This document shows, in pieces, positions 2,690 through 56,300 of a DNA stretch of 64,000 bases. The number at the start of each line of letters is the position of its first letter. The stretch's first letter is position 1. A program made the position numbers and the translations under genes. Origin of the DNA: an uncultured virus (IMG/VR IMGVR_UViG_3300001518_000020) (taxonomy: Duplodnaviria; Heunggongvirae; Uroviricota; Caudoviricetes). The DNA lies in the IMG/VR virus record IMGVR_UViG_3300001518_000020; one strand, written 5' to 3'. Below the pieces are notes generated by a model. It did not search any database, was not told the DNA's origin, and saw only the letters and a program-made list of their open reading frames with translations.

Positions 2690-3775
2690 ATGGCTAAAGA
2701 TTATTATAAAATATTAGGTGTTGATAAAAATTGTGATGAAGCTGAGTTAAAGAAAGCTTTCCGTAAAAAATCAGTAGAATGGCATCCAGATAAATGGCAA
2801 GATAAATCTGATGCAGAAAAGAAAAATGCCGAAGAACAATTTAAACTTATTGCCGAAGCATATGAATGTCTTAAAGATCCTGATAAAAGAGCTCGTTATG
2901 ATCAGTTTGGTGAAAATTGGGATCAAATGGGTCAAAGTAGTGGATTTGATGGCTTTGATGGTTTTAGTGGTTTTGAAGATATTATGAAACATATGGGAGG
3001 TGGTATGTTTAATGATTTCTTTGGAGGTGGAAGACGACAAAATAGAGGACCACAACCAGGACAAACGGTACAAACTCAATATGAAATAGGTATTAATGAA
3101 ATATTTAATGGTCTTAATACTAAATTTGAATTTGAAGTTAATGGACGTTGTACATCTTGTAATGGTACAGGTGGTGAATCTGAAATATGTAGTCATTGTC
3201 ATGGTACAGGTGTAATAACAACTACACAGCGTACAACTTTTGGAATGATGACACAACAGTCTAATTGTCCATATTGTCATGGTACTGGTAAAATCATTAA
3301 AAAGAAGTGTCCAGATTGTAATGGTACAGGTATTAAACGAATTAAACGTAAAGTTAATTTAAATATTAAGCCATTTACACCAAATGGTCATGTAATGAAA
3401 TTTACTGGAATGGGTTATGAATCTAAAGATCCACATGGATTAAATGGTGATTTATTAATTCAAATTGTTTACAAAATCGATACTTCTAAATATGTTATTC
3501 AAGGTAATACAGTTTATGAAAAAATAAAAGTACCATATTATAATTGTATACTTGGTACAAAATTAGATGTTATATTACCAAATAATGAAAAAAATACAAT
3601 AGAAGTAAAACCATTATCACAAGAAGGAGATCAAATTGTATTAAATAACAAAGGTATAAATGGTGGAAATTATATTTATATTATTTCAGTAGATATGCCT
3701 AAACGCAGTATATCATCTAAATTGAATAATAAAGAAAAGGAATTACTTGAAAAAATAAAAGAACTTCATAAATAG
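2690..3775 (+). CDS. dnaJ: DnaJ (Hsp40) chaperone
   Basis: KDYYKILGV start, HPD motif, G/F-rich linker, four CxxCxGxG repeats. Confidence 0.97.
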   Translation: MAKDYYKILGVDKNCDEAELKKAFRKKSVEWHPDKWQDKSDAEKKNAEEQFKLIAEAYECLKDPDKRARYDQFGENWDQMGQSSGFDGFDGFSGFEDIMKHMGGGMFNDFFGGGRRQNRGPQPGQTVQTQYEIGINEIFNGLNTKFEFEVNGRCTSCNGTGGESEICSHCHGTGVITTTQRTTFGMMTQQSNCPYCHGTGKIIKKKCPDCNGTGIKRIKRKVNLNIKPFTPNGHVMKFTGMGYESKDPHGLNGDLLIQIVYKIDTSKYVIQGNTVYEKIKVPYYNCILGTKLDVILPNNEKNTIEVKPLSQEGDQIVLNNKGINGGNYIYIISVDMPKRSISSKLNNKEKELLEKIKELHK

Positions 3776-11318: not shown

Positions 11319-11750
11319 ATGAAAAAAGATTGGAGTACACTTGAGAAAGGAGATAAACTTCATTTAATGATTCCTTATGAAGATGATGGAATAATAAAGT
11401 ACGAATTTCAAGAGAGTCAAGTAATCAATACACACCAATATAATTGGTGTACAAACGTTAGATTTAAATATACTGATAAAAATATTAATAAAAGACGTAG
11501 AGTTGAACTTTGTGTCAATAAATATAAATATGATCAGCTATATTTAGCATGTTGCGATAATACTAGTTGGGCAAGAGATTATATGCCTAAATGGGGGGAT
11601 ATCATTGTTATTTTTGTAGATTCGTTTTATTTAAATGAGATATATCAACGATTAATACAAACAAAAATAAAAGAACAAGAAACATTATTAGAATCACAAC
11701 AAATATTTCTTGATAAAATAAAAAAACTTAGATTTGAAAAAATTGTATGA
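11319..11750 (+). CDS. Hypothetical protein
   Basis: 143-aa ORF abutting its neighbours. Confidence 0.7.
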   Translation: MKKDWSTLEKGDKLHLMIPYEDDGIIKYEFQESQVINTHQYNWCTNVRFKYTDKNINKRRRVELCVNKYKYDQLYLACCDNTSWARDYMPKWGDIIVIFVDSFYLNEIYQRLIQTKIKEQETLLESQQIFLDKIKKLRFEKIV

Positions 11751-12205
11751 TTATTTGGAAAACAGGAGATATATTTAACTCCAAATGTAAGACTTTAGTC
11801 AATACAGTAAATTGTGTTGGTGTTATGGGAAAGGGTATTGCTTTACAATTTAAACAAAGATATCCCAAAATGTTTGAAGAATATAAGAAAATTTGTAAAC
11901 CTGGTCAATATAGATGTCTTGAACATGGTGGAGATCTTTGGTTATATACTTATATAGACTTATTTAAAGAAAAAAAGATATTATGTTTTGCAACTAAAGA
12001 ACATTGGCAATACCCATCAAAATTAGAATGGATTGAACGTGGGTTGAAAGAATTTGTTGAAAATTATAAATATTGGAAAATAACTTCTATTGCGTGGCCT
12101 AAGCTTGGCTGTACAAATGGTAGATTAGATTGGGAAAATCAAGTTAAACCACTTATGATAAAATACTTAGATCCATTACCTATTAAATGTGAAATATATG
12201 AATAA
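11747..12205 (+). CDS. Macro-domain ADP-ribosylhydrolase (DarG/TARG1-like)
   Basis: GDIF, VNTVNCVGVMGKGIALQFK, FATKEHW and SIAWPKLGC.NG.LDW motifs. Confidence 0.9.
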   Translation: MIIWKTGDIFNSKCKTLVNTVNCVGVMGKGIALQFKQRYPKMFEEYKKICKPGQYRCLEHGGDLWLYTYIDLFKEKKILCFATKEHWQYPSKLEWIERGLKEFVENYKYWKITSIAWPKLGCTNGRLDWENQVKPLMIKYLDPLPIKCEIYE

Positions 12206-18802: not shown

Positions 18803-18830
18803 AAATGAGGAATCTTAAGATTCCTCATTT
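18803..18830. terminator. Bidirectional terminator (perfect 28-bp palindrome over the MTase stop codon)
   Basis: AAATGAGGAATCTT/AAGATTCCTCATTT. Confidence 0.7.
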
Positions 18831-20104
18831 TTTATTGTTTTATTTATATTATTTTGGAATATTGAATTACTACTTGTTTCTCTAGGTTCATTCCAATGTT
18901 CAAGAATTTTATATGCTTGTTGAGCTATAAATTTCATTGTGCCAACAGGAACATTTTGACCAATTTGGTTAATATTAGGATTTGTTCCATATAATTCAAA
19001 ATCATAAGGCATTCCCATTAATGATAAATATTCTCGAATATTATAAGTTCGATTTTCATTAATATGTAACATATTTGGCATTGATCTAAATTGTACAGAA
19101 GGCAATACATCAGTTACATATTGAATATCATCACCATAATAATTTAATCCTTTTGATAACTTATTATTAATATGTTCAAAATAATGTAATGTTCTTTCTT
19201 TTGATTCATTATCATATTTATTTGAATTTTCAACAAATTTAATTAAATCATCCATTAAATTATGTTTGAATACATAATTAATAAGTTTACCATTTATTTG
19301 ATTTTTCCAATCACTTCCTAATTTATATTCTAAATAATCAATAATATAATTATTATGTACAGCTGTCTTAATAGATGTTTGTTGAGTACTATCTTTAGGA
19401 ATTCTTGCAATGAATTCTTCTATTGATACATTATTAGATTCAAAATCAAATATTGGTGGATTTTGTATTTCTACATCTGCATTATGTTTAATAAATATTC
19501 CAAATGTTCTTGGTCTTTTTTGACAATTATTATGCAAACATGTATCAGTTTTATAATAAAGCAATGAATATCCATATTTAATAGCAACTTTATTAAACCA
19601 TGAACGTAAATTATTACCTCTTGTACCCATTAATGTAGGAGCGTTTTCAAATACATATATCTTTGGTTTAATAACACTTAATGTATAATTTGTTATCCAT
19701 TGCATGTTATTATTTCTTTCATTCTTAGTATTTTCTCCTGCAGAAGTAACCATTGATAGTCCTGAACATACTGGAACAGCAATAACTAAATCTAAATTAT
19801 TATAATCAGGAAGTTCACATCCACCATTATCTAAAATTATATTTGGTTTTGTAAAATCAATATTAATTTTAAATGGATCTGCTTGTATTCTATAATAAGG
19901 AATATTTTTATTATGATTCTTTAAATATTGTCTTAAATGATATTCATTAGAAGCACTTTTGATATTTCCATCTTTATCTAACTTACAATCATCAAATCCT
20001 CTAAATGACATAATCCATTCTGCAGAATGTCCAATTGCTTCTTCCGTTCCTAAATATGCACCACCCGTTAAAGGTTGAATAGCTGCCCATTTAATTTTAT
20101 TCAT
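18815..20104 (-). CDS. C5-cytosine DNA methyltransferase-like protein with an atypical motif I
   Basis: Motif IV PVCSGLS, VI FENA, VIII QKRPR, IX REYLSLMGMP.DF and X QIGQNVP. Motif I reads IQPLTGG instead of FxGxGG. Confidence 0.85.
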   Translation of the reverse strand: MNKIKWAAIQPLTGGAYLGTEEAIGHSAEWIMSFRGFDDCKLDKDGNIKSASNEYHLRQYLKNHNKNIPYYRIQADPFKINIDFTKPNIILDNGGCELPDYNNLDLVIAVPVCSGLSMVTSAGENTKNERNNNMQWITNYTLSVIKPKIYVFENAPTLMGTRGNNLRSWFNKVAIKYGYSLLYYKTDTCLHNNCQKRPRTFGIFIKHNADVEIQNPPIFDFESNNVSIEEFIARIPKDSTQQTSIKTAVHNNYIIDYLEYKLGSDWKNQINGKLINYVFKHNLMDDLIKFVENSNKYDNESKERTLHYFEHINNKLSKGLNYYGDDIQYVTDVLPSVQFRSMPNMLHINENRTYNIREYLSLMGMPYDFELYGTNPNINQIGQNVPVGTMKFIAQQAYKILEHWNEPRETSSNSIFQNNINKTIKNEES

Positions 20105-21380
20105 TTAATAACTTTTTATATTTTTCTACATTTTCATCATTAATATATTCTCTAAAATGATTAAATATTGACTTTCTTTGACGATATTTAATATCTTTAT
20201 ATAATTGTTCATCATTTGCAATCATATCTACCTTTTTAGAAAATTCTTCAGGAGATGATACATACATAAATTCTTTCAAAACATCATCATCTGTTAATTG
20301 TTTATTAGGATCATATCTTAAATCTACAAAAGCAATAACATCGGCTAACATACAATCAAAATATCTTGGACTAATTTGATTTCCTAAAATATTTTCTTCA
20401 TGAGTAATAAATGCTGATTTTGCATTTGATGCTACATATTGCCACAAATCATAATATTCCATTACATCATGTTTATCAAAATCAATTCCTTCTTTTAAAT
20501 TTACAAAGAATGGACTACGACCAACAATATGTAAGAATTTATTCTTTAATGCTCCATAATATGCTTCCGTTGTTTTTGTTCGTTTTCCAGACTTGGTTAC
20601 TCCATGATATTCACAATCATATTTCTTTTCACTCCAAGGATATGTCTTAAACTTTACATCAAGATTATCATTAACTCCATTCCAAATATAACAATTGAAA
20701 TTATCCCATCCACTAACAATAGGACGTTTATCAGGCTTTATATTTGCTATAAACTTATTATAATCTAATCCGCAAAAACCAATAATAACAGATTTAAAAC
20801 ATTCATCAATGTCTTTCCTTATTGATTTCATATATTCAACTTCCTTATCAACAATTTCTGCAGGATATTTTTTATTATAAGCTATCTTTAAATTTTTTAA
20901 ATCTAATAAACGTTTTACAACCATTGCAGGAATGTGTGGATTTGGGAATAATGGATCGTCTTGAATATAGAATAATTTATTATCTGTTCCCTTTGACGAT
21001 ACCCACCACTCAGTAATACGATTAATATTATATGGTGTAAAAATCCATGTTACACCTCCATAAAAATTTGGAGGAGTACATTGCATAATAACATCATTAA
21101 CATTATGTTTTTCAAGAATATGTTTTTCTGATGTACCCCATATAATAGGAAGATCTTTTAACATATTTGTACATATATGTTCTGCTGGATCAGTTGATGG
21201 AACATTTGACATAATCCAAACTTTATCATAATTACAAAATTCTGTTAAAAATCTATAATATTGATATAAACAATAAGTACGAATAGGATTTTTTAAAAAT
21301 GATACGACATCTTTAGTTTGACAAATTGCTGCTATTTTACCTTTACCACTATTTTTATAAAAATGATTAATTTTTTCCAT
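20097..21380 (-). CDS. DNA beta-glucosyltransferase-like glycosyltransferase
   Basis: PNFYGG, DDPLFP and ISPRYFDCMLADVIAFVDLRYDP resemble T4 BGT segments (NFFGG; ITLRVWETMASDAVMLIDEEFD). Adjacent to the hydroxymethylases. Confidence 0.7.
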   Translation of the reverse strand: MEKINHFYKNSGKGKIAAICQTKDVVSFLKNPIRTYCLYQYYRFLTEFCNYDKVWIMSNVPSTDPAEHICTNMLKDLPIIWGTSEKHILEKHNVNDVIMQCTPPNFYGGVTWIFTPYNINRITEWWVSSKGTDNKLFYIQDDPLFPNPHIPAMVVKRLLDLKNLKIAYNKKYPAEIVDKEVEYMKSIRKDIDECFKSVIIGFCGLDYNKFIANIKPDKRPIVSGWDNFNCYIWNGVNDNLDVKFKTYPWSEKKYDCEYHGVTKSGKRTKTTEAYYGALKNKFLHIVGRSPFFVNLKEGIDFDKHDVMEYYDLWQYVASNAKSAFITHEENILGNQISPRYFDCMLADVIAFVDLRYDPNKQLTDDDVLKEFMYVSSPEEFSKKVDMIANDEQLYKDIKYRQRKSIFNHFREYINDENVEKYKKLLNE

Positions 21381-21385
21381 ATAAT

Positions 21386-21958
21386 TTATTTATTAATTTT
21401 ATTCCAAAATTGTTCATATAAATGTATTGTATCTGCACACCAATATATTTTTATATCATCTATAATATAGAATTTATCTAATATAATTTTTATTTTATCT
21501 ATTATTTTTTTATGCCATAATATATCTGAATCAAACTCAATAACATCATTACTACGCATATGTACAATATATTCAAATATATAATGATTATTAGGTTGTT
21601 TAACTAAGAACAAATGCATATACATTGTACATATAAATGTTGGATTATTATATTCGGAAACATCTCCCATTATAATAACTGCTTGACGAGTATTTGGATT
21701 ATCAATTAATTTTTTAACACATTTTATAAATTGATTATTTCTTTCTAATATAGGATCATAATTATCTATATACCATTGTGGTCCCATATGTGCTAATGGA
21801 GGTATTTCATCAAATATTTTTAATTTATCAACTTCAAATATAATATGTCTTAATTCTACATATCTAATACCACTAGTACAATTATAACCAGTTTCTTTTA
21901 TATTGTTATTTTTTAATTCATCTAATAATAATCGTTTAATATCTTCTGTCTTATACAT
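21386..21958 (-). CDS. Divergent second dCMP hydroxymethylase / thymidylate-synthase-fold protein
   Basis: NTRQAVI, FICT (catalytic Cys), MRSNDV, SD and HLY motifs. 190 aa. Confidence 0.8.
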   Translation of the reverse strand: MYKTEDIKRLLLDELKNNNIKETGYNCTSGIRYVELRHIIFEVDKLKIFDEIPPLAHMGPQWYIDNYDPILERNNQFIKCVKKLIDNPNTRQAVIIMGDVSEYNNPTFICTMYMHLFLVKQPNNHYIFEYIVHMRSNDVIEFDSDILWHKKIIDKIKIILDKFYIIDDIKIYWCADTIHLYEQFWNKINK

Positions 21959-21976
21959 TTTTTGATAAATGTTTAT

Positions 21977-22720
21977 TTAAAATCTTTCTATATTTTCATA
22001 ATAGTTAAAGATATTTTGTTTAGTTTCAAAATCTGTTAAAATCTTAAAATGTCTTTCATAAATATGTAATGAACCTGCATTCCAATATATATTTCCAGAA
22101 ACAATATGCTTACCAGTTTTTTCTCTAAGATAAGCTACTAATTTATCTTGTACGTGAATCATCCAAAGTGCATCATTATTAAATCCAAATACTGCATCAT
22201 TTGAACGGAAATTAACTATACAATCTAATAATGTATTTTTTTCATCATATTCATTTAAGAAATACTGAACATTTTGACAACACATAAAATCATGCATACC
22301 ATCTTTATTATATTCATATTGCATACTTGGACGATTATAAATCATAATAGCTTCTCTTGTATGTGGATCATCTATTAAATGTTGAGCACAGTTTTCAAAT
22401 TGAGAACCATTTTCTTTAGAATAAATACACCAACCATAATTAGAATTGATAAATCCATCTGATGTTGCACATGCTTTCCACATTTTAGGAGCACCACCAG
22501 GAATGTCATTAACGTTTAATGATTGTGATTTATACCATTTTAATTCCTTTTCATAATAATCATAATTTGGTTCACGAACAATCCATGGTTTATCTACTAT
22601 AAAATGCGCATTTTGTATTTCTAATGTTTTTGATTGTTGAACATTATTACCTATTATTCTAAAATCACCCTTCTCATATTTATCAAGAAAGATATTAAAT
22701 ATTCCATTTGTATTTAACAT
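21977..22720 (-). CDS. dCMP hydroxymethylase (T4 gp42-like)
   Basis: INSNYGW, TREAIMIYNRPSMQYEYNKDGMHDFMC, RSNDAVFGFNND (Asp specificity residue for dCMP) and WNAGSLHIYERHF. Confidence 0.92.
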   Translation of the reverse strand: MLNTNGIFNIFLDKYEKGDFRIIGNNVQQSKTLEIQNAHFIVDKPWIVREPNYDYYEKELKWYKSQSLNVNDIPGGAPKMWKACATSDGFINSNYGWCIYSKENGSQFENCAQHLIDDPHTREAIMIYNRPSMQYEYNKDGMHDFMCCQNVQYFLNEYDEKNTLLDCIVNFRSNDAVFGFNNDALWMIHVQDKLVAYLREKTGKHIVSGNIYWNAGSLHIYERHFKILTDFETKQNIFNYYENIERF

Positions 22721-22721
22721 A

Positions 22722-23267
22722 TTATTTTACTCCTATAAATTTAAGTGCTTCTTCATGTATATCATTTATATCTCTAAATTTATCTTCATTATTGATATAT
22801 ATGATTTTTTTATTTAATTTTGATATATTAAAAATTTCTTTAAATCTATTTTGTTCAACTTCAATTTTAGTTATATTTCCTTTAGATAATGATTTATTAT
22901 CATCATTTTTTACAAGTAAACTATCTGATGATGATAAAAGTTGTATATAATATGCATCAATATTATTTTTCAAATAAATATCATCAATTTCATTTATTAT
23001 ATCAATAGCATCTTGTTCAGATATACCTCTATACATACATCCATAAACATATTCACCATAATGACTTCTATTTAATATAACAACATCAGTATCATATTTT
23101 TTTGTTACTATTGCATAAGCATATCCTCTAAATAATGTTTTTTGAATATATTTATTTTCTGGTTTTGTATAATGAACAATTGTACATGTTAAAAATTGTT
23201 CTTCGATTTTTTTAATTAAAGAATCTTTTCCACAATTATCAGGTCCTTCAATAATTATTAATTTCAT
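22722..23267 (-). CDS. Thymidylate-kinase-like nucleoside monophosphate kinase
   Basis: IIIEGPDNCGKDS P-loop and NRSHYGEYVYG. Confidence 0.85.
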   Translation of the reverse strand: MKLIIIEGPDNCGKDSLIKKIEEQFLTCTIVHYTKPENKYIQKTLFRGYAYAIVTKKYDTDVVILNRSHYGEYVYGCMYRGISEQDAIDIINEIDDIYLKNNIDAYYIQLLSSSDSLLVKNDDNKSLSKGNITKIEVEQNRFKEIFNISKLNKKIIYINNEDKFRDINDIHEEALKFIGVK

Positions 23268-23365
23268 TTACTCATAATATATAATTTTGGTATTTGTAAT
23301 ATATTAAAAATAGTTAAAAATGATATTCTATTATTATTTTTAATAAAGTAAATTTATATAAAATA

Positions 23366-25009
23366 ATGAAAAGTTTCAGTGAACTAATAAAAGAAAAATA
23401 TATCACAAACATATCTGATATATATAATATAGTTAAAGAAGACGAAAAACTTCAAGGTGAACCTGGAAAATCTCAAGAAGATAATCCTAATCCAACCAAT
23501 GAATTAGATATTAAATCTAATGCAACAGAGGAGGAAAAAAACGATACAAAATATTTTTTCAAGAACATTTTATTTTTTACTAATGAACGTGAATCAAAGA
23601 AAAACAAAACATTAAAAAATCTTGAAGATGCCGTAAAAGGTAAAGATATAAAAATTATTACATTTGTATCTGAAGAAGTTAATTATAAAGCAACCGATGA
23701 AAAAATAGATATTGAAGATGAAAAGACAAAATATACTATTGATCATCAATCAAATATTGATACTATTGTAATTGTTCGTTTAGGTGCTCAAAAATCTGAA
23801 GAATGTATGGAATGTATTAAAGAAATTCAAGATTGGGGTCTTTTTGTTATTAATCCTATACAATCAGCTAAACGTGCTTCTAATAAATACCAAGCATCTG
23901 TATTAATGGAGAGATATGATATTCCACAACCTAAATTTACATTGGTTTGTAAAAATGATATTCAAAAAGGAATGGAATCACTTAATAAAAAACTTAAGAA
24001 TATTTATAAAGATGTTGATTCTGAAGAAGCCGAAAAATATGAATATGTTGTAAAGATTCTTGATGGACATGGTGGAACAGGTGTATTCATGGAAACAGGT
24101 AAATCTATATTAGCAGCACTTCAAGCAATGTTTGCAGTTAAAGAAGATTTAGAATTATTAGTTCAAAGGAAAGAAGAAGCTGATGGTGGTGATATAAGAG
24201 TTCATGTATTAACAATGCGTACTGAACAAAAAATATTAGCAGCTATGAAAAGAAAGAAAATTGGTGGAGATTTCCGTTCAAATGTTTCATTAGGTGCACA
24301 AGCAGAACCAGTTGAAATTACTAAAGAACAAGAAGAAATTGCACTTAAAGTTGCTAAAATATCAGGTATGCCTTGGTGTGCTGTTGATATTATGCCACTT
24401 GTAGAAGGATCTAATGATGATTTCAAAGAAGCTGGATATAATGTAGTATTAGAATATAATAGTTCACCAGGTACAGATGGTATTTCTGAAGTTATTGGTG
24501 AGAATTTTATGAAGATTTTATTAGATAACATAAACAATATTAATGAATTAGTATTAGCTCCAAAATCAATTGGTTATCTTGAAAATATAGTATTTACTAT
24601 GGAAAATGAAGAAGAAATTGAATTTGAAGCTAAATTAGATACAGGTAATGGTGCTAAAGCATCTACAATTGGTTGTGATTCTGTGGAAGTTGATGGTGAT
24701 AATGTAACAGCTGAAATTGATGGTAAAACATATAATTTCAAAAAGACAGATATATCAAAAGCTATAGTTGGTCAAAGCACCGAAGAACGTACTGTTGTAT
24801 CTATTCCATGTATACAAATTGGTACTCGTAAATTACTAGATGCAGAATTTGCTTTAGTTGATAATCGTAAAAAGAAACAAAAAGTATTACTTAATCGTGA
24901 TTTAATGAGTAAACTTGCATATATAATTAATCCATCAAAGAAACATTTATTAGAAGATGAATTTAGTGAATTGAGAGTTATCGATAAAACTAAAAAGAAA
25001 AAGAAATAA
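23366..25009 (+). CDS. RimK-family ATP-grasp ligase fused to a RimB-like retropepsin protease
   Basis: ASNKY, VVK..G.GG.GV, DIRV, FRSNVSLG, AVD and VLEYNSSPG (ATP-grasp). C-terminal AKLDTG..LLNRD (aspartyl-protease fold). Confidence 0.88.
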   Translation: MKSFSELIKEKYITNISDIYNIVKEDEKLQGEPGKSQEDNPNPTNELDIKSNATEEEKNDTKYFFKNILFFTNERESKKNKTLKNLEDAVKGKDIKIITFVSEEVNYKATDEKIDIEDEKTKYTIDHQSNIDTIVIVRLGAQKSEECMECIKEIQDWGLFVINPIQSAKRASNKYQASVLMERYDIPQPKFTLVCKNDIQKGMESLNKKLKNIYKDVDSEEAEKYEYVVKILDGHGGTGVFMETGKSILAALQAMFAVKEDLELLVQRKEEADGGDIRVHVLTMRTEQKILAAMKRKKIGGDFRSNVSLGAQAEPVEITKEQEEIALKVAKISGMPWCAVDIMPLVEGSNDDFKEAGYNVVLEYNSSPGTDGISEVIGENFMKILLDNINNINELVLAPKSIGYLENIVFTMENEEEIEFEAKLDTGNGAKASTIGCDSVEVDGDNVTAEIDGKTYNFKKTDISKAIVGQSTEERTVVSIPCIQIGTRKLLDAEFALVDNRKKKQKVLLNRDLMSKLAYIINPSKKHLLEDEFSELRVIDKTKKKKK

Positions 25010-28612: not shown

Positions 28613-29629
28613 TTAAATATATATTAAAAATTGTTTATTGTCATTCATTACAATTTTTACAGGAATAATATTTGTACCTGGTATTTCAACTCCTAAATCT
28701 ATAGTTGGTCCTCCTTTTAAATCAATCATACTAATTTCACAATCTTTATGACCTATTTGTTGAATACCAAATGGTGAACAAACTTTATAACATTCATCAG
28801 ATATTTTACGAAGATAATTATTTACATTTTCACGTGTATTTAAATCAACAATTTCATTTTTAAATTCTATATTATCATGAATTAAATCCCACAATTGTTG
28901 AAACAATTCATCATATCCTTCATTATTCTCTATTATAAAATCATATGAATCTTCTTCATCCAAATCATGTTCTGCAACATTAGGTAATTGTACAACACTA
29001 TTTCTAACAATTTTAATAGTTATACCATTATTTTTATGAATATATTCTAATTCATGTGTAAAACGTACGTCAGTTATAATAGCATATTTTAAATTGTGAT
29101 TATTAAGATATGCATTTTTAATTTGATTTGAAACATTATTAACAAATACTTGTTTATTTAAATCTTGTTGTAACATATAAGTTCCAACATATACCAAAAT
29201 ATCACGTAAACTCATCCAATATTTTGTATCTGAATTCTTATATTCTGAAATATTATAATAATATTCTTCACATGATATTACGTTATCAGGTCTAATTTCA
29301 GTATATTCAAATCCTTTGTTAATACATATCCATGCGGTTGATTTATTAAAATAAAAACATCTTAAATCTATGCCGAAAATTGCAGCGCAAATATATTTTA
29401 ATTGATCTGCAAATGCTATACAAATTACTTGATTTTTATTATCTTTATATTTTTCATAATATGTTGCTGAAGCATTAGGTTTATTATAAAAATTATCATA
29501 AAAACTTTTACATGATTCTATGCTTTCCCAATCTTTCATTAATATAGTATTCAACATCTTTGCAACAGTGTCTTTACCTGAACCAGCCAAACCATTTAAA
29601 CCAATATACAAAAGTTGATCATTATTCAT
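28613..29629 (-). CDS. Deoxynucleoside monophosphate kinase (T4 gp1-like)
   Basis: IGLNGLAGSGKDT, AFADQLK, R.IL..VGT and IITDVRFTHE motifs. Confidence 0.88.
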   Translation of the reverse strand: MNNDQLLYIGLNGLAGSGKDTVAKMLNTILMKDWESIESCKSFYDNFYNKPNASATYYEKYKDNKNQVICIAFADQLKYICAAIFGIDLRCFYFNKSTAWICINKGFEYTEIRPDNVISCEEYYYNISEYKNSDTKYWMSLRDILVYVGTYMLQQDLNKQVFVNNVSNQIKNAYLNNHNLKYAIITDVRFTHELEYIHKNNGITIKIVRNSVVQLPNVAEHDLDEEDSYDFIIENNEGYDELFQQLWDLIHDNIEFKNEIVDLNTRENVNNYLRKISDECYKVCSPFGIQQIGHKDCEISMIDLKGGPTIDLGVEIPGTNIIPVKIVMNDNKQFLIYI

Positions 29630-29687: not shown

Positions 29688-30419
29688 TTAACAATTATTT
29701 ATTCGTTCTTTAGCAATATTAAAATAATTTGTATCTAATTCTATTCCAATAAAATTTCTATTAAGTTTTTTACATGCAACTCCAGTTGTTCCACTACCCA
29801 TACAATTATCTAATATTATATCTCCTTCATTAGAATATGTTTTAACTAACCATTCCAATAATTCAAGAGGTTTTTGTGTTGGATGTAATTTACCTTTTCT
29901 ATTTGGCACAACATTAAATTCTAAAATATCTGATGGTTGTACCCAATTTGGATCATAACGTTTAAATTGTTTTTTCATTAGAGATAAATGATTTGAATTT
30001 CCACAATAATGATCATAATTATAACATTGTTTTATTTTACCAACACGTTCTTTCATTATAGGATTATATATACCAGTACCTTTATTAAATATACAAATCT
30101 CTTCATAATATTTCATTGGCCTATATTTTGATTTAGCCATTCCTGTTGGTACATTCTTCTTCCAAATCAATTTATATTTAAAATTTTTTATATTTGAATT
30201 AATTAAATTAATTGTGAATAATCCTGAACTAAACAAAACAATATTACCATTTTTCTTAATAATTCTATTATAATGTTCCCATAATTTATCGAATGGAATT
30301 AATGAATCCCATGATATATTTGTTACAGCATAAGGCAAATCACAAATAATACAATCTATAGAATTATCTTTAATTTTTTCAAATGTATATAAACAATCTT
30401 CGTTATATAATTCTATCAT
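29688..30419 (-). CDS. N6-adenine/N4-cytosine DNA methyltransferase (beta class)
   Basis: DLPY, HPTQKP and LDNCMGSGTTG motifs. Likely start is ATG 30419 (MIELYNEDC). Confidence 0.92.
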   Translation of the reverse strand: MIELYNEDCLYTFEKIKDNSIDCIICDLPYAVTNISWDSLIPFDKLWEHYNRIIKKNGNIVLFSSGLFTINLINSNIKNFKYKLIWKKNVPTGMAKSKYRPMKYYEEICIFNKGTGIYNPIMKERVGKIKQCYNYDHYCGNSNHLSLMKKQFKRYDPNWVQPSDILEFNVVPNRKGKLHPTQKPLELLEWLVKTYSNEGDIILDNCMGSGTTGVACKKLNRNFIGIELDTNYFNIAKERINNC

Positions 30420-30550
30420 TCCGGAACACTCCAATACATTGAATTTAAAAATATTAATAACTACATATTTAATTAAAAATACGTTCGGGTGAAGCCTGAC
30501 ATGAATTATTAATATTTATTTAATATAGTTAAAATTTGTTTAAAATAAAA

Positions 30551-50322: not shown

Positions 50323-53300
50323 TTAAACTGCTAAACTTGGTCCAAATAAGCAATAACTTAAGAATGATGGATTCATCTTACGATTGCTATGATCAACAGC
50401 ATTTTGATTATTTAATTTATATACCATATCTGGAGTACTACTATTTATATCATGTGCAACTTGAATATTTTCTTTATTAGAACCATTTATATCTCCAGTT
50501 GTATCAGGATTAGGAGTATCATAATACCAATACATTTTACTATGTTTATAATCAGTATATGAATAAATTCCTGTATATAAGTTATCAAAATCTCTTCCTT
50601 CTGTTCCTTCTGGTAGACTACTATTAAAATAAAATTTACTCTTATCAAATAATTTAGTAGATAATTGACCAGTTTTGTCTAATTCATCTAAGAATTCTTT
50701 AAATACATTATAATTATTCATTACATTCATATAATCTTTTGAAGATAATGGTTTACATACCATATTTGATATACCTAATTTCTTATAATCATTAATATAA
50801 TAGAATATCATATTACTATCTGAAATAGTAGATGTATTAGAGAATTTAATTTCTCCTCTACGATATGCATTACATAATCTTTCAATTTTTTGTTCTGGAT
50901 CAGACATAGCTTCAGAAATATCAAATGTACCAACTGATTGTAATGTAAATATACCACCATCAGCACCATTACGTTTACCAGCAGAAATTATTCTATAATA
51001 ATCATACCATTTAGAATATAAATAACCATCAGAATATCTTTCATAATGTGTAGTATCATGAACAAATGTATTTGGTTCATCTAATAATAAATGGAATGCA
51101 TATTGATTATTAAAGTTGATTCCATAAGATTCATCATTATACCATGTACTATCTGTTGACCACCACATATATGCTTCTTGTTCAGATGCTAATTTCCATG
51201 GATCTAATGATGTATATGTACGTGTTCCTTTATCATTAAGATAAACATATACTAAAGCAATGAAATATTCTTTAATATTTGTTATAACGTATGTTTGTTG
51301 CTTATAACCTGCTAAATCATATAAATTCAAATTCTTATCTAAGAAGTATAAACATTCTGCTGGAGTATTTTCATTTTCTCCGAATGCTTTAATATCAGAT
51401 GAATTTATATTGAAGTTAGTTGTTAATGCAGCTGTACGTTCAACATGAATATCTTTATCTAATGTTGTTTTAATACCATTAAATGATACTGAATATTGTA
51501 ATTTAGTTGAAGCAGAGAATAAATTACTTTTTGTTGATTCTAATAAACTAAAACTAAATGTATGTGATTTATCATCTGTAGTAATTATACCATTATTAGT
51601 AATGTATTCTTTTAAGTTTGGAGTTTCATTAATTGTTGTAAATGAATCTGTAGATAATGTTGAATAATTAGCTTCAGGATATTGTTCATTTGATAAGAAT
51701 TGAACAGTTCCATTATTATACTTTTTAGTAATATTATCTGAATTACCCCAAACATATTTTACATTGTTAATTTCACTATATGTATGTAAATCATATTTAA
51801 TTGTTGGCATTACTTGAGATAATAATATTGAATTCTCTGAACTGTCAGAAGTATCAAATTCAGTAACATTATTAATAGATGTAGACTTAATAAGATTAAT
51901 ACCATCTGGTAAGAAATAACCTAATATTACATTAACCTTCTTAGTAGTAACATTATCATAAACGTCTTTAATAACAATATTAAATTCACCAAATTGATAC
52001 ATAGATTGTTTAGCAACAGGTAACTCAATATCAATTGATTCAATCACATTTTGTTTAATTATTGAATTATTTGGAATAATATTATATTTTACAAATATTC
52101 CTTCTGGAACAACAATTTCCATTGATTTAACTGGAACATTATATTCAGCAGGATTAATATTAACTTGATAATGATATGAAACAATTTTTTGTGTTCCTTT
52201 TGTTTTAATTTCAGATTCAGATTTTACATATTGTTCAATAGTTAATTCATGTTCTTCATTTTCTTCTAATACTTCATTATTATATACTAATTGTATATCA
52301 TTAATTTTCTTAGTATTAAGATTTACATTAATTAATGAAGTCAATACTGTGTTTTGTTTATCTCCAAGATGTACAAATACATATAATGTGATTTGAGTAT
52401 TATCATTTTGAATATTTGGTAAATATTTAATAATATATTTACCTAATTCGTTATCAAATTCAACATTAAGTTGTCCAAATTCATTATTACTAATAACTGT
52501 ATTAGAATTAAATGAAGCTTCAACACTAGTAATATCAACATTTATTGGTTTTTCAATATCAAAAGTTAATTTATATTGATATTCTTTAATTTCATCAATT
52601 GTTTGTGTTGTAATTACAGGATCACCATTTGAATTTATAATTACAATATTATCTGAATTAGGTTTAACTAAGTTTTCAATATTAATTATTGTATTAGCAA
52701 CTGATTGACCTGGAAGTAAACTATCTGTTACATTAATTTCAATTGATTTATTAGAAGTATCTGTATATTCATAAACATCTAATATAGCTGTACCGTTATC
52801 GTTTGTTAAATATGATTGAGTAGCACCTTGATAAAATGTATTGAAATAAACATTATTAGTTTTATTCCAAACTGTCATTTTGTTATTAGCAGGATTAACA
52901 GATGCAGGAATAATATTAATAATACGTTCATTATTAATTGGGAAAATAGTTGCAGTTATTTTAACCTTTTGACCAGCTAAAACAGTATATGCTTCACCAT
53001 CATAAACAGGTTCTTTACCATTATCATATCCTGTAACTGTTAAGAATACTGAACTATTACTATCAAAGTGGAATGCTGCGTCTGAACGGAATGTTGAATC
53101 TTCCCAAAGTTTCTTAACATCATTAAATTTAGAAGTTGTCATTTCTTCATAATTTTCTTGTGTTAAACCACCATTTGGATTATCTCCATAAAGTTTGATA
53201 ATACCTTTATTAATAACGAAGTTTTCTACACCCATATTATTAAGACCAAAATCTCTCTTAATAGCATTTAATAAATCAAGTGACTTAATCTTCTTAGTAG

Positions 53301-56300
53301 CTGCAGAAACATTTGGATTTTCTTTAGGTATACTATCTAACCAAACATTAACATCTTCAGCTAAATCACCATCAATATTACCATAATATTGTTCAAGTTC
53401 AATTGTATTGAATGATAATGAGCATGAATAATCAGACATTCTTACATCATATTTCTTAAGCATTATATACCAGTTAAGTATAAATTCAAATAGTTTATGT
53501 CCTTCAAATGCATTACCGCTAACATTTTCAATTTCAACTCTTGTTAATGCAACTGATGGAGTAAATCTAAATTCATCAACAGAAACACCATTTAATTTTA
53601 ATGTTGAAACTGAACTTGGTAATGAAACTTCTTCTAACATAACACCTTTAGCAGGTATGAAACTATTAATAGAAGAACCATCAGCTAAGAATTTAGTAAG
53701 GTTACCTAATTGAGAAATATCAATAGATTTCATTAATGAACATGTTCTAATATCTAATACTTTAAGTGTCTTTAATCTATCAATTTGAGATATACCTTGA
53801 ACAGCACATCCAGGTATTTCTGAAATTGGTTTATCACCACCTAAAATAAGTTCTTCAATTAATGAACCTTTTTCAGGAGCCCAGCTACATGTAAGTACTT
53901 GTCCTAAACCATTACGATTAACACTAAAGTCAAGAACTTTAGCTTTATAAACACCATACATTTGCATTGGGTTACCAAGAATAAGAGTATCAACTGTTTC
54001 GAACATATGTTCTTGACCAGCTTCAAGTTCTACAAAGTTATTACCTAATATATTATTATTAGAAATAATTGAGTAATAGAATTTAGAACCAGCAACTATT
54101 CTTAAGAATGGTTGTTTATTACTTGGAGAAGCTTCAAGACCCATATAGAAGTCTAAACGGTTTGTAGCATATTCACCAGCTGACCATTTAGAATCATAAA
54201 GATCGAAACGGTGTCTTAACCACCAATCACGGTGTGATGCACGAGAACCTTGTAAGAATGGAAGATACTTAGTATTTTGATATGGATTATATGAAGCAGT
54301 ACCTTCATTATCTATATCATTATATGTTCCAATATACTTATACATTTCTGATTGGTTATAAAGTCTTTCTGACCATGTACCTGATTGTTTAACGTTAAAC
54401 ATATCAAGCGCAATATCATAAGTAAGTACATTAGATGTTACCATTGCAGTAGCAGCCTTTTGAACTTTATCTAAGAAATCTGGATCTTGTTCAAGTGTAT
54501 TCCAAAGAACTGAACCGAAACCAGCGAATGCATAAGAACCAACTGATTCATCATATGTTTCACGAGTAACTTGCCAATCATATGCTAAGTAACCATCATT
54601 ACGAACACCAAGTACAGTATCATTATCATAGTTGATAAAGTAATAGTGTTTAGCATCTTCTGTTGTCATCATAGTATTCTTAATAACTTGGTCAACACCA
54701 GCAAATCTCATTAAGTATACATAGTAACATGCTAATTTCCATACATCAAAGTGTTCATATTTTTGATCTTGGAAATATTCAAATTTAGTCTTTCCTTTGA
54801 ATGAAGTACCTTTAGAAACCTTTTCACCAGTACCTGTAACAATTGTTACTTCTTCACCCGATGCATAAGGTACTGTCTTACCCATTTCATCAACATATGT
54901 ATAGTTATTACCATTCTTAGTTAAGTAAACTGTTACCCATGCATTTGGATGTATTTGTTCTCTTTCTGAATTCATACGTTTACCATCATAAGTAAATACA
55001 CGACCAGTATATACTTCATCCTTCATTGGAGTTGTATTAATTGTCTTTGTAACAATTGTACGATCAAATGTCTTATCAATATAATACCATTGTCTAATTT
55101 CATCAGTAGCATTTGGGTACCAATCCATAGCTTCATATGAAATTTCATTTGGATCATCACTTTCTTCAATAATATATACGTATGGAGTACCTGAATTTAA
55201 TACATCATAAATACGTTGAATCATTAAATCTTGATTAGTTTCATTTTCACTATATAATGGTTCCATTGATCCAGTACTTGTAGCAGTAACTTGTGATGCA
55301 TAAGTTTGACGATAATAAACAATTAATTTACCTTTTTTATAAAGATTAGCTTTAGCAGCTTCTATATCCATTAATGTTGGTTTACCTGTATTATCATCAT
55401 AAATTATAGCACCATCTGAATCTGTAGCATAGAAATTAGCTGTCTTATCTTTTGGAGACATCATTGGAACAGAAAGATAAAGTGTTTTATTTGGTAATGA
55501 ATTTAATATTGATTTATCTTCAAACCATTCTTGAGCTGTTAAATCATCAAGTTTAGTAAAATCGCTTAATTCATAACCATCTTTATCTTTACCTGGTTCA
55601 CCAACACGAACACTTACAGCATCTTTACAGAAATTAACGAAACGAATAACTGTTTCTAAGTGATCTGTACGAGTATCATTTAAGTCATCATTATCTGGCC
55701 AACGAGCTTCATAAGTCTTAAAGATAGGACGATCTTCATTATTAGCTTCACCTGGTGTATAATCAACAGTAGAACCATCAACATTATCAGTTGTAGCATC
55801 ATTCATTTGAGCTAAACGAGAACCGTTTTGAAGACATTCCCAACATTCTGTACGTTGATCATCATTACCAGCATTGAATAAAGTATTACCATCTTCGTCT
55901 TTAAGATCTTCAAATCCAAATAAAGGAGTAGAACCTTTATCAGTCATAATGTTATAAAGACCTAAGAATACTGGATCACCATATTCTTCTGTAAATTGAT
56001 TATTATCATTTTTGATACGAGGACGGTTAATAATAATAATTGGATAACCATCACAAGATGTTCGAATATCACCAAATACTAATTTTTGAGATACATTATT
56101 AATAGTAATTGTCTTATCTTTGTGAGATTCATCATATTCTTGCATAGCACGTTGAGCATTAGTAGCACCAGGTTTAGATGTCATGAATTTATTACCATCT
56201 ACATCATATGTGAAACCTTCTGTACCAATTTCAACATCACGCATTACATCACCCCAAAGTCTACCAACACCAGCATTATGTGTCATAGAAGACTCTGCAT

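Follow-up and report, generated by a model that had tools for sequence, protein, structure and literature searches.

A five-gene operon on the minus strand of a 64,000-nucleotide (nt) stretch of DNA from an uncultured virus (IMG/VR record IMGVR_UViG_3300001518_000020), hereafter the window, very probably encodes a T4-like pathway by which cytosine is replaced by sugar-coated 5-hydroxymethylcytosine (5hmC). Taken as a whole, it is likely a cytosine hypermodification operon, acting both before and after replication, with two accessory reactions left undefined. The core, made up of a T4 gp42-type deoxycytidine monophosphate (dCMP) hydroxymethylase, a kinase and a glycosyltransferase (GT) that resembles T4 beta-glucosyltransferase (BGT) in its C-terminal half, is a member of the already known T4/RB69 kind of pathway, and what is new is its combination with a family of proteins that have the fold of C5-methyltransferases (MTases) and with a subfamily of short proteins that have the fold of thymidylate synthase (TS). 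Also new here are the assignment of the synthases to the 5-hydroxymethyl (5hm) and not to the 5-hydroxy type, a connection between the operon kinase and the class of RB69 gp45, and the residue signature that sets the MTase-fold family apart from CmoX.

Phage DNA hypermodification is a source of new base chemistry, of anti-restriction strategies and of enzymes for epigenome sequencing. The MTase-fold family stands out in that it is large, has fixed changes in its cofactor site and occurs inside 5hmC glycosylation operons, where C5 of the base is already occupied. If its reaction is new, it would bring either a novel DNA base or a novel route to derivatised 5hmC. The short TS-fold proteins form another candidate for new chemistry and belong to a superfamily in which flavin-dependent hydroxylation has only just been demonstrated (Lee et al., NAR 2026, PMC13326640). 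In the literature, which is considered here and below in its open-access main text, no description was found of an enzyme with the C5-MTase fold that is linked to a TS-type 5hmC pathway, or of a short TS-fold subfamily.

The operon (Table 1) is tightly packed, with successive gaps of 1, 18 and 5 nt and an overlap of 8 nt between the GT gene and the gene for the MTase-fold (MTase-like) protein, exactly as given in the original prediction from the list of open reading frames (ORFs) for 18803-23313. The family assignments proposed there for the five genes also hold, as judged from Pfam, PHROGs and Protein Data Bank (PDB) profile matches, and the view that the genes form a cytosine hypermodification unit is borne out by a synthase (TS-A) with all of the signature residues of the gp42 type, a kinase and a BGT-like GT. 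What was recognised early on as an addition to the T4 scheme, namely a second TS-fold enzyme (TS-B) and a C5-MTase-fold enzyme, proves to be conserved in both cases and to have its catalytic residues.

Table 1. Coordinates of the operon genes and of the neighbouring features discussed in the text.
Feature	Position	Strand	Remarks
Kinase, P-loop, thymidylate-kinase-like	22722-23267	minus	181 aa, operon gene 1
TS-A, T4 gp42-type dCMP hydroxymethylase (5hm-dCMP synthase)	21977-22720	minus	247 aa
TS-B, shortened TS-fold paralogue	21386-21958	minus	190 aa
GT, BGT-like C-terminal nucleotide-sugar domain	20097-21380	minus	427 aa
C5-MTase-fold protein, non-canonical cofactor site	18815-20104	minus	429 aa, last gene
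Palindromic hairpin, bidirectional, intrinsic-terminator-like	18803-18830	none	T-runs on both sides
gp1-like deoxynucleoside monophosphate kinase	28613-29629	minus	338 aa, outside operon
RimK-like ATP-grasp protein	23366-25009	plus	547 aa, divergent neighbour

The probable hydroxymethylcytosine core

TS-A is closely related to the dCMP hydroxymethylase of T4 (1b49_A, E 2.7e-63 over residues 30-229), matches the TS-fold family PF00303 (1.3e-10) and is 45% identical to RB27 gp42 (alignment A2). It retains the catalytic residues E60 and C146 as well as Asp at L143, D169 and Asp at N177 (columns KELKWY, DFMC and RSND...ND). According to the main text of Lee et al. (NAR 2026, PMC13326640), Asp at N177 denotes specificity for dCMP and Asp or Glu at L143 denotes a hydroxymethyl product, and RB69 gp48 and its relatives are flavin-dependent 5-hydroxy-dCMP synthases for which D169N is the proposed diagnostic residue. 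Because D169 is kept in TS-A, which reads RSND where RB69 gp48 reads RSQN in the same alignment, TS-A is by its residues of the 5hm type and not of the 5-hydroxy type. TS-B also reads RSND, and for want of D169N the 5-hydroxy-dCMP synthase type of RB69 gp48 and DLP3 gp80 was rejected for both proteins. The TS homologue of S-TIM5-type cyanophages is a different case, as it has D169 and Asp at N177 together with Cys at L143. In S-TIM5 itself, gp076 (L001 4757-5593) is annotated as 'thymidylate synthase' and carries Cys-Pro-Pro-Cys where hydroxymethylases have Asp at L143; with its Asp at N177 and D169 it may act on dCMP rather than on dUMP.

In the proposed pathway, which for the early steps draws on strong homology, TS-A would convert dCMP to 5hm-dCMP with methylene-tetrahydrofolate, and the thymidylate-kinase-like kinase, the gp1-like kinase encoded outside the operon, or both, would raise 5hm-dCMP to the diphosphate. 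A host nucleoside diphosphate kinase would then give 5hm-dCTP, to be incorporated by the phage polymerase, and the BGT-like GT, by weaker homology and from its context, would place a sugar on 5hmC in DNA.

The operon kinase matches PPK2 (3e-6) and phrog_761, 'thymidylate kinase' (2.3e-12), and is 38% identical to the kinase of L003, a T4-like contig of IMG/VR (E 4e-31). Its similarity to RB69 gp45 (BLASTP, 26% identity over 112 aa, E 5e-6) is weak but significant. A homologue lies directly upstream of the TS homologue in L007, L009, L019, L033, L036, L084 and other loci. The separate gp1-like kinase noted in the first reading is real (PF21448, DNMK, 1e-10 on residues 11-243; phrog_139, 5.6e-32) and probably belongs to the same pathway. 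The dedicated kinase of the operon had been thought not to fit the T4 scheme. The same layout is, however, already published in the main text on the glycosyl-5-hydroxycytosine clusters of RB69, DLP3 and RL38J1, where a 'nucleotide kinase' (RB69 gp45, DLP3 gp78 and RL38J1 gp214) stands beside a synthase and one or more glycosyltransferases with the gp1-type dNMP kinase located elsewhere (PMC13326640). The window kinase has the properties of the RB69 gp45/DLP3 gp78 type, being a P-loop, thymidylate-kinase-like protein encoded beside a TS homologue. Since these clusters share the arrangement, the pairing of a dedicated kinase with a separate gp1-like kinase is not new. The gp1-like kinase of the window has an extra C-terminal stretch of about 95 aa past the DNMK profile, and directly upstream of its gene lies that of an N6/N4 DNA methylase (29688-30434, minus strand; PF01555, 3e-31).

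A P-loop kinase is also co-associated with a TS-superfamily hydroxymethylase in thymidine hypermodification, which uses a 5-hydroxymethyldeoxyuridine DNA kinase (5-HMUDK) and a dUMP hydroxymethylase (Lee et al. 2018, PMC5889632). In contrast, the TS homologue of the window is of the cytosine type, and no glycosylase-fold transferase was found there. When the window kinase was compared by tblastn with 50,697 phage records, 21 matched, none of them of the ViI, M6, SP10 or PhiW-14 type, in a single-sequence search that leaves room for remote homology. With no known 5-HMUDK phage among the 21, a 5-HMUDK assignment has no support within the reach of that search.

The GT matches phrog_7922, a beta-glucosyltransferase, on residues 317-406 (5.3e-8) and belongs to a family of 48 homologue clusters. 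A profile of 23 of its sequences has T4 BGT (1bgt) as the sole match in the PDB (E 6.9e-7), with profile positions 240-395 aligned to BGT 169-328, that is, to the C-terminal domain only, and the same profile finds no significant match among solved structures for the N-terminal half. In T4 BGT, a GT-B enzyme, the N-terminal domain is the one that binds DNA. One homologue, P0180 (653 aa, 63% identity), is fused to a dCMP/cytidine deaminase domain (PF00383, PF14437), while P0191 (724 aa), which was suspected to be a GT-MTase fusion, has no similarity to the MTase-like protein. Unlike the operons of its relatives, that of the window holds no sugar-activation genes, and because of this the sugar would likely come from a host nucleotide-sugar.

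Compared with the T-even glucosyl-5hmC pathway (T4 gp42, gp1 and the alpha- and beta-glucosyltransferases), the window shares the gp42-type synthase, the gp1-like kinase and the BGT-matching C-terminal domain of the GT. It differs in the N-terminal half of the GT, which matches nothing solved, and in adding the thymidylate-kinase-like kinase, the shortened TS-fold paralogue and the C5-MTase-fold enzyme. The relatives are like the RB69, DLP3 and RL38J1 clusters in one more respect, since L003, L009, L019, L033 and L002 (Pseudoalteromonas phage XG4) carry the arabinose-type sugar cassette known from RB69 and DLP3 (a nucleotidyltransferase-kinase fusion together with a phosphatase, to which some add an isomerase or epimerase). 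They differ in that the window and all of the relatives checked keep D169 in place of the D169N reported in the main text for those clusters. RB69-type phages also lack the MTase-like family, and the word 'methyltransferase' occurs 0 times in the main text of PMC13326640. The combination of a D169-type synthase with this cassette in the five relatives predicts, from gene content, a pentosyl-5hmC, which differs from the base reported for RB69.

A family with the C5-methyltransferase fold and its possible reactions

The MTase-like protein scores 66.8 bits against PF00145 (2.9e-18), compared to a cut-off of 22, and its AlphaFold 2 (AF2) model (predicted local distance difference test, pLDDT, 93.6; predicted template-modelling score, pTM, 0.92) is matched by Foldseek to MET1, M.HaeIII, DNMT1, M.HhaI and CmoX, all with probability 1.00. 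CmoX (8yf3) is also the best sequence match in the PDB (E 0.0034). A first search gave 548 homologues at E <= 1e-5 among 2077 candidates, and a residue signature was counted over 184 distinct family members with positions in M.HhaI numbering. The profile, the fold and motifs IV, VI and VIII of canonical C5-methylases are all present. The catalytic Cys (C81) is kept in 183 of the 184, and all of them have QxRxR and, at the position of the ENV motif, E-N-A. The cofactor site is another matter. Canonical motif I, the loop for S-adenosylmethionine (AdoMet), has the consensus FxGxGG. In the family it reads (Q/I/V)-P-L-x-G-G, with the F18 position never Phe (Q 152, I 24, V 7, E 1) and G20 replaced by Leu throughout (184/184). 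P80 is mostly Val (V 141, P 30, I 11, L 2), the Gln of PCQ, Q82, is never Gln (S 151, A 32, N 1), and N304 of motif X is Gln in every member (184/184).

The last of these positions is of particular interest. In the window protein it is Q383, whose aligned counterparts are R350 in CmoX and, in MET1, the Asn of 'igNAVP'. The main text on CmoX equates HhaI N304 with R350, which binds the carboxymethyl group of carboxy-AdoMet (Cx-SAM), reports that a single change at this position turns a methylase into a carboxymethyltransferase, and defines CmoX by SPPC together with R350 (Yang et al., Nat Commun 2025, PMC12783734). Membership of CmoX was rejected for the window family, which reads VPVC(S/A) with Gln at the R350 position and has neither defining feature. 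In the alignment, the family is a third state (Gln) at a position occupied by Asn in methylases and by Arg in CmoX.

When IMG/VR was scanned with the family alignment, 330 relatives were confirmed and 79 distinct loci kept. Gene neighbourhoods reaching about 10 kb from the MTase-like gene were compared by ORF clustering in 81 sources, made up of 78 of these loci together with L003, L004 and the window. A TS homologue is found in 23 of the 81, a thymidylate-kinase-like kinase in 21, a labelled glycosyltransferase cluster (AGT-like, that is, alpha-glucosyltransferase-like, GT1, GT2 or BGT-like) in 25, and sugar-nucleotide enzymes (epimerase/dehydratase, nucleotidyltransferase, DegT aminotransferase, hexapeptide acyltransferase, HAD phosphatase) in 30. 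At least one of these classes, or a cluster resembling deoxycytidine triphosphatase (dCTPase), is present in 53 of the 81, and the dCTPase-like gene itself occurs in eight sources at a median distance of 84 nt. All of the nearby TS-A-type proteins (22/22) are of the 5hm type, with Asp at L143, D169 and Asp at N177. Fourteen contigs without a nearby TS were searched whole; eight hold a TS elsewhere, and the non-ThyA ones are again of the 5hm type (8/8). Among the non-ThyA TS homologues checked in the IMG/VR contigs of the family, none is of the 5-hydroxy (D169N) type.

The operons of the nearest relatives start with the kinase and TS-A and finish with the MTase-like gene, and have an exchangeable middle, which is the BGT-like GT alone in the window, an AGT-like and a BGT-like GT in L007, and the arabinose-type cassette in L009, L019 and L033. 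The prediction that the gene linkage would recur is upheld. The order kinase, TS-A, TS-B is kept in four IMG/VR contigs (L007, L009, L019 and L097), and the MTase-like gene closes the operon in L007, L009, L019 and L033, L097 ending before that point. Two MTase-fold paralogues are present in some relatives, either in the same operon (L003, 1234-2535 and 8728-9996), in tandem (L036, 5951-7147 and 7152-8318) or far apart in the genome (L014 and L018, on one contig).

Among the 50,697 phage records, tblastn finds the family in nine (Pseudoalteromonas phage XG4, five S-TIM5-type cyanophage records, two records of Bacillus phage G and one metagenomic phage) and in none of the T4-type and RB69-type phages. 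The XG4 cluster has the order kinase, 5hm-type synthase, phosphatase-like, nucleotidyltransferase-kinase, two GTs, MTase-like and dCTPase-like. A pattern scan of 185,579 bacterial and archaeal species genomes with alignment A1 gave seven MTase-like loci, all in records labelled as uncultured metagenome-assembled genomes (MAGs). Two of these public records, labelled as bacterial MAGs and holding L102 (410,106 bp) and L103/L104 (400,076 bp), are single contigs of about 400 kb. Both look like giant-phage genomes binned as bacteria, and the first, which equals the IMG/VR contig of L009 in length, is probably phage DNA. Apparently the family is phage-only, a provisional view given that the scan reaches close relatives only.

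Since the Cys, Glu and Arg residues of the active site are retained, the MTase-fold protein would be expected to flip a cytosine-type base out of the phage DNA after replication, with Cys113 attacking C6. It may act sequence-specifically on 5hmC or on a precursor state before glycosylation. Because the cofactor-site changes are fixed, the accompanying synthases are exclusively of the 5hm type and the gene frequently adjoins the last sugar gene, a reaction on 5hmC or a non-methyl transfer is slightly preferred over plain methylation, as a tentative choice to which the evidence shifts the weight only moderately. A more specific and rather unlikely form of this proposal is that the family applies its Cys-C6 chemistry to 5hmC itself, either exchanging the hydroxyl via the exocyclic methylene or adding a group supplied by a non-standard adenosyl cofactor. 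Canonical methylases are reportedly able, in work from the Klimasauskas laboratory, to exchange the hydroxyl of 5hmC for another nucleophile in vitro without AdoMet. If the proposal were true, the DNA of a widespread group of phages would contain an undescribed derivative of cytosine, the product of the Gln-state enzyme.

The best surviving alternative, still on the doubtful side, is that the MTase-like protein is an ordinary AdoMet-dependent, sequence-specific C5-methylase, which would give a mixed genome of glycosyl-5hmC and of 5-methylcytosine at cytosines that escaped replacement. The PF00145 score is well above its cut-off, all of the fold matches are C5-methylases, and the catalytic Cys, the Glu of ENx, QxRxR and the scaffold of motifs IX and X are invariant. 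Two paralogues in the operons of L003 and L036 are what would be expected of different sequence specificities. A plain methylase, however, fits poorly with a family in which the motif I Phe, the first Gly of motif I, the PCQ Gln and the motif X Asn are each found in 0 of 184 members. It would equally suit 5-hydroxy-type phages, and yet the family is seen only with 5hm-type synthases, and T4 and RB69 do without it. The dCTPase-like gene that adjoins in eight loci and in XG4 also implies that cytosine is excluded there.

Several observations weigh against the preferred reaction on 5hmC or non-methyl transfer, or more widely against the 5hmC context in which it is set. What is read directly is gene order, residue patterns, folds and co-occurrence, and every function is inferred from these. 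No labelled hypermodification class lies within the examined distance in 28 of the 81 sources, and many of the 81 loci are near-duplicates or lie on a shared contig, so that counts over them are not independent events. No TS homologue is present in six of the 14 contigs that were searched in full, these six being only 15-38% complete. The association with the 5hm type may also reflect lineage, in that the enterobacterial 5-hydroxy phages and T4 simply lack the family. The equivalents of F18 and G20 were placed from loop length, the secondary structure of the model, a partial alignment of 'iGG' with 'CGG' and the canonical consensus FxGxGG. The Asn-Glu pair aligned to motif II is kept (N in 182 and E/D in 173 of 184), and this pair, which we take to be the contact to the AdoMet ribose, implies that an adenosyl cofactor still binds, as fits an ordinary methylase. 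DNMT3A has Arg after the glycine of motif X and still uses AdoMet. Finally, in a departure from the T-even pathway, a dCTPase is seen neither in the window nor in G016, a relative of 410 kb that is 97% complete and has no match to either of two families, phrog_173 and MazG. With no recognisable dCTPase in G016, the exclusion of cytosine may be incomplete and unreplaced cytosine could be a real substrate, which keeps the idea of a mixed genome alive. In five related records taken together, phrog_173 matched XG4 only and MazG (PF03819) matched none (0/5), these being the two dCTPase families searched. Genome-level checks of this kind concern related contigs and not the window's own genome.

A CmoX-like reaction, in which the MTase-like protein would take a non-methyl group from a modified AdoMet and place it on C5 of unmodified cytosine, is improbable. 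CmoX belongs to the CmoA/CmoX/CmoY 5-carboxymethylcytosine system of Synechococcus phage S-B43, and the two enzymes are alike in being phage proteins of the C5-MTase fold changed at the HhaI-N304 position, with CmoX the nearest solved sequence and also a fold match; in the window family the R350 position is an invariant Gln and the neighbouring PCQ Gln is Ser or Ala (PMC12783734, main text). SPPC and R350 are both missing, however, with VC(S/A) and Gln in their places beside the altered motif I. No CmoA-like, CmoY-type (asparagine-synthetase) amide ligase or other cofactor-making gene was found among the window ORFs scanned (Pfam for those from 376 to 30949 except 2189, 7367 and 27242, PHROGs alone for the other listed ORFs), and no conserved small-molecule enzyme recurs beside the family from locus to locus. 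The partner of the window enzyme is a pre-replicative 5hmC pathway, whereas the CmoX substrate, according to the same main text, is unmodified cytosine in GC motifs.

The formation of 5hmC after replication by a methylase and a TET-type dioxygenase, with the MTase-like protein as the first enzyme and TS-A irrelevant, is close to refuted: although Burke et al. 2021 (PMC8256090) and Pyle et al. 2023 (preprint 10.1101/2023.12.21.572611) describe in their main text phage clusters of a C5-methylase, a TET-type (5mYOX) dioxygenase and glycosyltransferases, which likewise join a C5-MTase-fold gene to DNA glycosyltransferases and sugar genes, Tet_JBP (PF12851) gives nothing at E <= 1 in all five related contigs searched, no dioxygenase of that kind is annotated in the window, and a gp42-type synthase with all of its catalytic residues stands in the same operon, where 5hmC would come from the TS homologue and no methylase is needed to start.

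The shortened paralogue TS-B

TS-B matches phrog_160 (5e-7), and its sole solved relative by sequence is T4 dCMP hydroxymethylase (1b49_A, E 4.5e-5 over residues 75-184), which is also the best fold match of its AF2 model (pLDDT 92.9; template-modelling score by query, TMq, 0.78), followed by MilA and then by the HY126 dCMP hydroxylase. The family comprises 39 homologue clusters of 182-222 aa at 42-88% identity, and in 25 aligned members C110, R91, R135, S136, D138, D145 and Y181 are invariant. Here C110 corresponds to the nucleophile, D138 to the D169 position and D145 to the N177 position, so that the residue set of dCMP hydroxymethylases (Cys, R166/S167/D169 and Asp at N177) is present in all 25 sequences. 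Glu60 is missing (column MGP--QWY), and at 190 aa, compared to 246 for the gp42 type, TS-B lacks the stretch SL.V.DIPG..PKIW...INSNYGW of the gp42-type enzymes, which is presumably the region of the folate-contact tryptophan in thymidylate synthase. Because 39 clusters at this level of identity keep an invariant active-site set, TS-B is, on the evidence of its conservation, a real compact subfamily and no decayed copy. Its gene directly follows that of TS-A in all five contigs that have it (the window, L007, L009, L019 and L097), it is missing from the close relatives L033 and L010, and in G016 the orthologues of TS-A and TS-B are the only TS-family genes. A second modified pyrimidine had been among the suggestions made for the operon; in the sense of a uracil derivative it is not supported, given the cytosine-type Asp that TS-B carries at N177.

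With its nucleophile kept, TS-B would bind a dCMP-type nucleotide, and it would either form another C5-modified dCMP, using a co-substrate other than that of TS-A, or pair with TS-A. The first of these, in which a second derivative is made before replication and the DNA contains two cytosine derivatives, is possible but held with reserve. Across the 25 members no variation is seen in the nucleophilic Cys, in the contacts to phosphate and pyrimidine or in the dCMP-type Asp, the gene position after TS-A is constant, and the superfamily has switched from folate to flavin once, in the 5-hydroxy-dCMP synthases (main text of PMC13326640). The invariant D169 equivalent stands in the way. D169 is linked to opening of the folate ring by the title of PDB entry 1bjg, so that folate may still serve and the product might again be 5hm-dCMP. 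No glycosyltransferase or kinase is particular to TS-B-bearing operons, and L033 and L010 manage without the protein.

A partner role, in which TS-B is not autonomous and tunes or channels 5hm-dCMP synthesis as a heterodimer with TS-A or as a scaffold for nucleotide synthesis, is viewed with much the same reserve. TS enzymes occur as obligate dimers that share their active sites, and the absence of Glu60 and of the folate-contact segment, as well as the constant place directly after TS-A, are consistent with such a role. A mere scaffold, however, would have no need of substrate-binding and nucleophile residues that stay invariant at 42-88% identity.

Operon boundaries and the surrounding phage DNA

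The palindromic terminator proposed at the end of the operon was found as a hairpin with a 12-pair stem (4 G-C pairs) and a 4-nt loop, followed by a T-run. It covers the stop codon of the last gene and reads as a putative terminator for both strands between convergent genes. The CTATTTT motif proposed as the other boundary signal did not hold up. The word that contains it, AACTATTTTTAA, has a single exact occurrence (23304-23315), and with one mismatch it has 8 matches in the window where 6.3 are expected, a number reached in 32 of 100 shuffles. Sigma-70-like sites in the region number 56, fewer than the 66 in shuffles. As the word is not enriched and these sites lie below shuffles, there is no evidence of a promoter role, and CTATTTT was dropped as a promoter motif.

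The RimK-like neighbour matches PF08443 (9.5e-22) and has a C-terminal extension of about 160 aa without annotation. Its homologues adjoin the kinase gene in L007, L009, L019 and L033 (69-77% identity) and in L097 (70%), a conservation that may reflect no more than synteny in closely related phages.

The window, with a GC content of 0.19-0.32 per 2 kb, is AT-rich and contains genes for tail sheath, tail tube, anaerobic ribonucleotide reductase (NrdD/NrdG), helicase and endolysin; it is the DNA of an AT-rich large phage. Three plus-strand chaperone genes encode a Hsp70/DnaK-like protein (922-2112), of which only the C-terminal two thirds of PF00012 (positions 251-598) is matched, a Hsp20 (2189-2629) and a full DnaJ (2690-3772) with J, zinc-finger and C-terminal domains. 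A macro-domain protein (11747-12202, plus strand; PF01661, 4e-13) is labelled 'phosphatase' in PHROGs. On the minus strand, just downstream of the tail tube and sheath genes, an ORF of 2937 aa (50323-59136) has phrog_14959 (function not assigned) as its sole match, at 2e-86.

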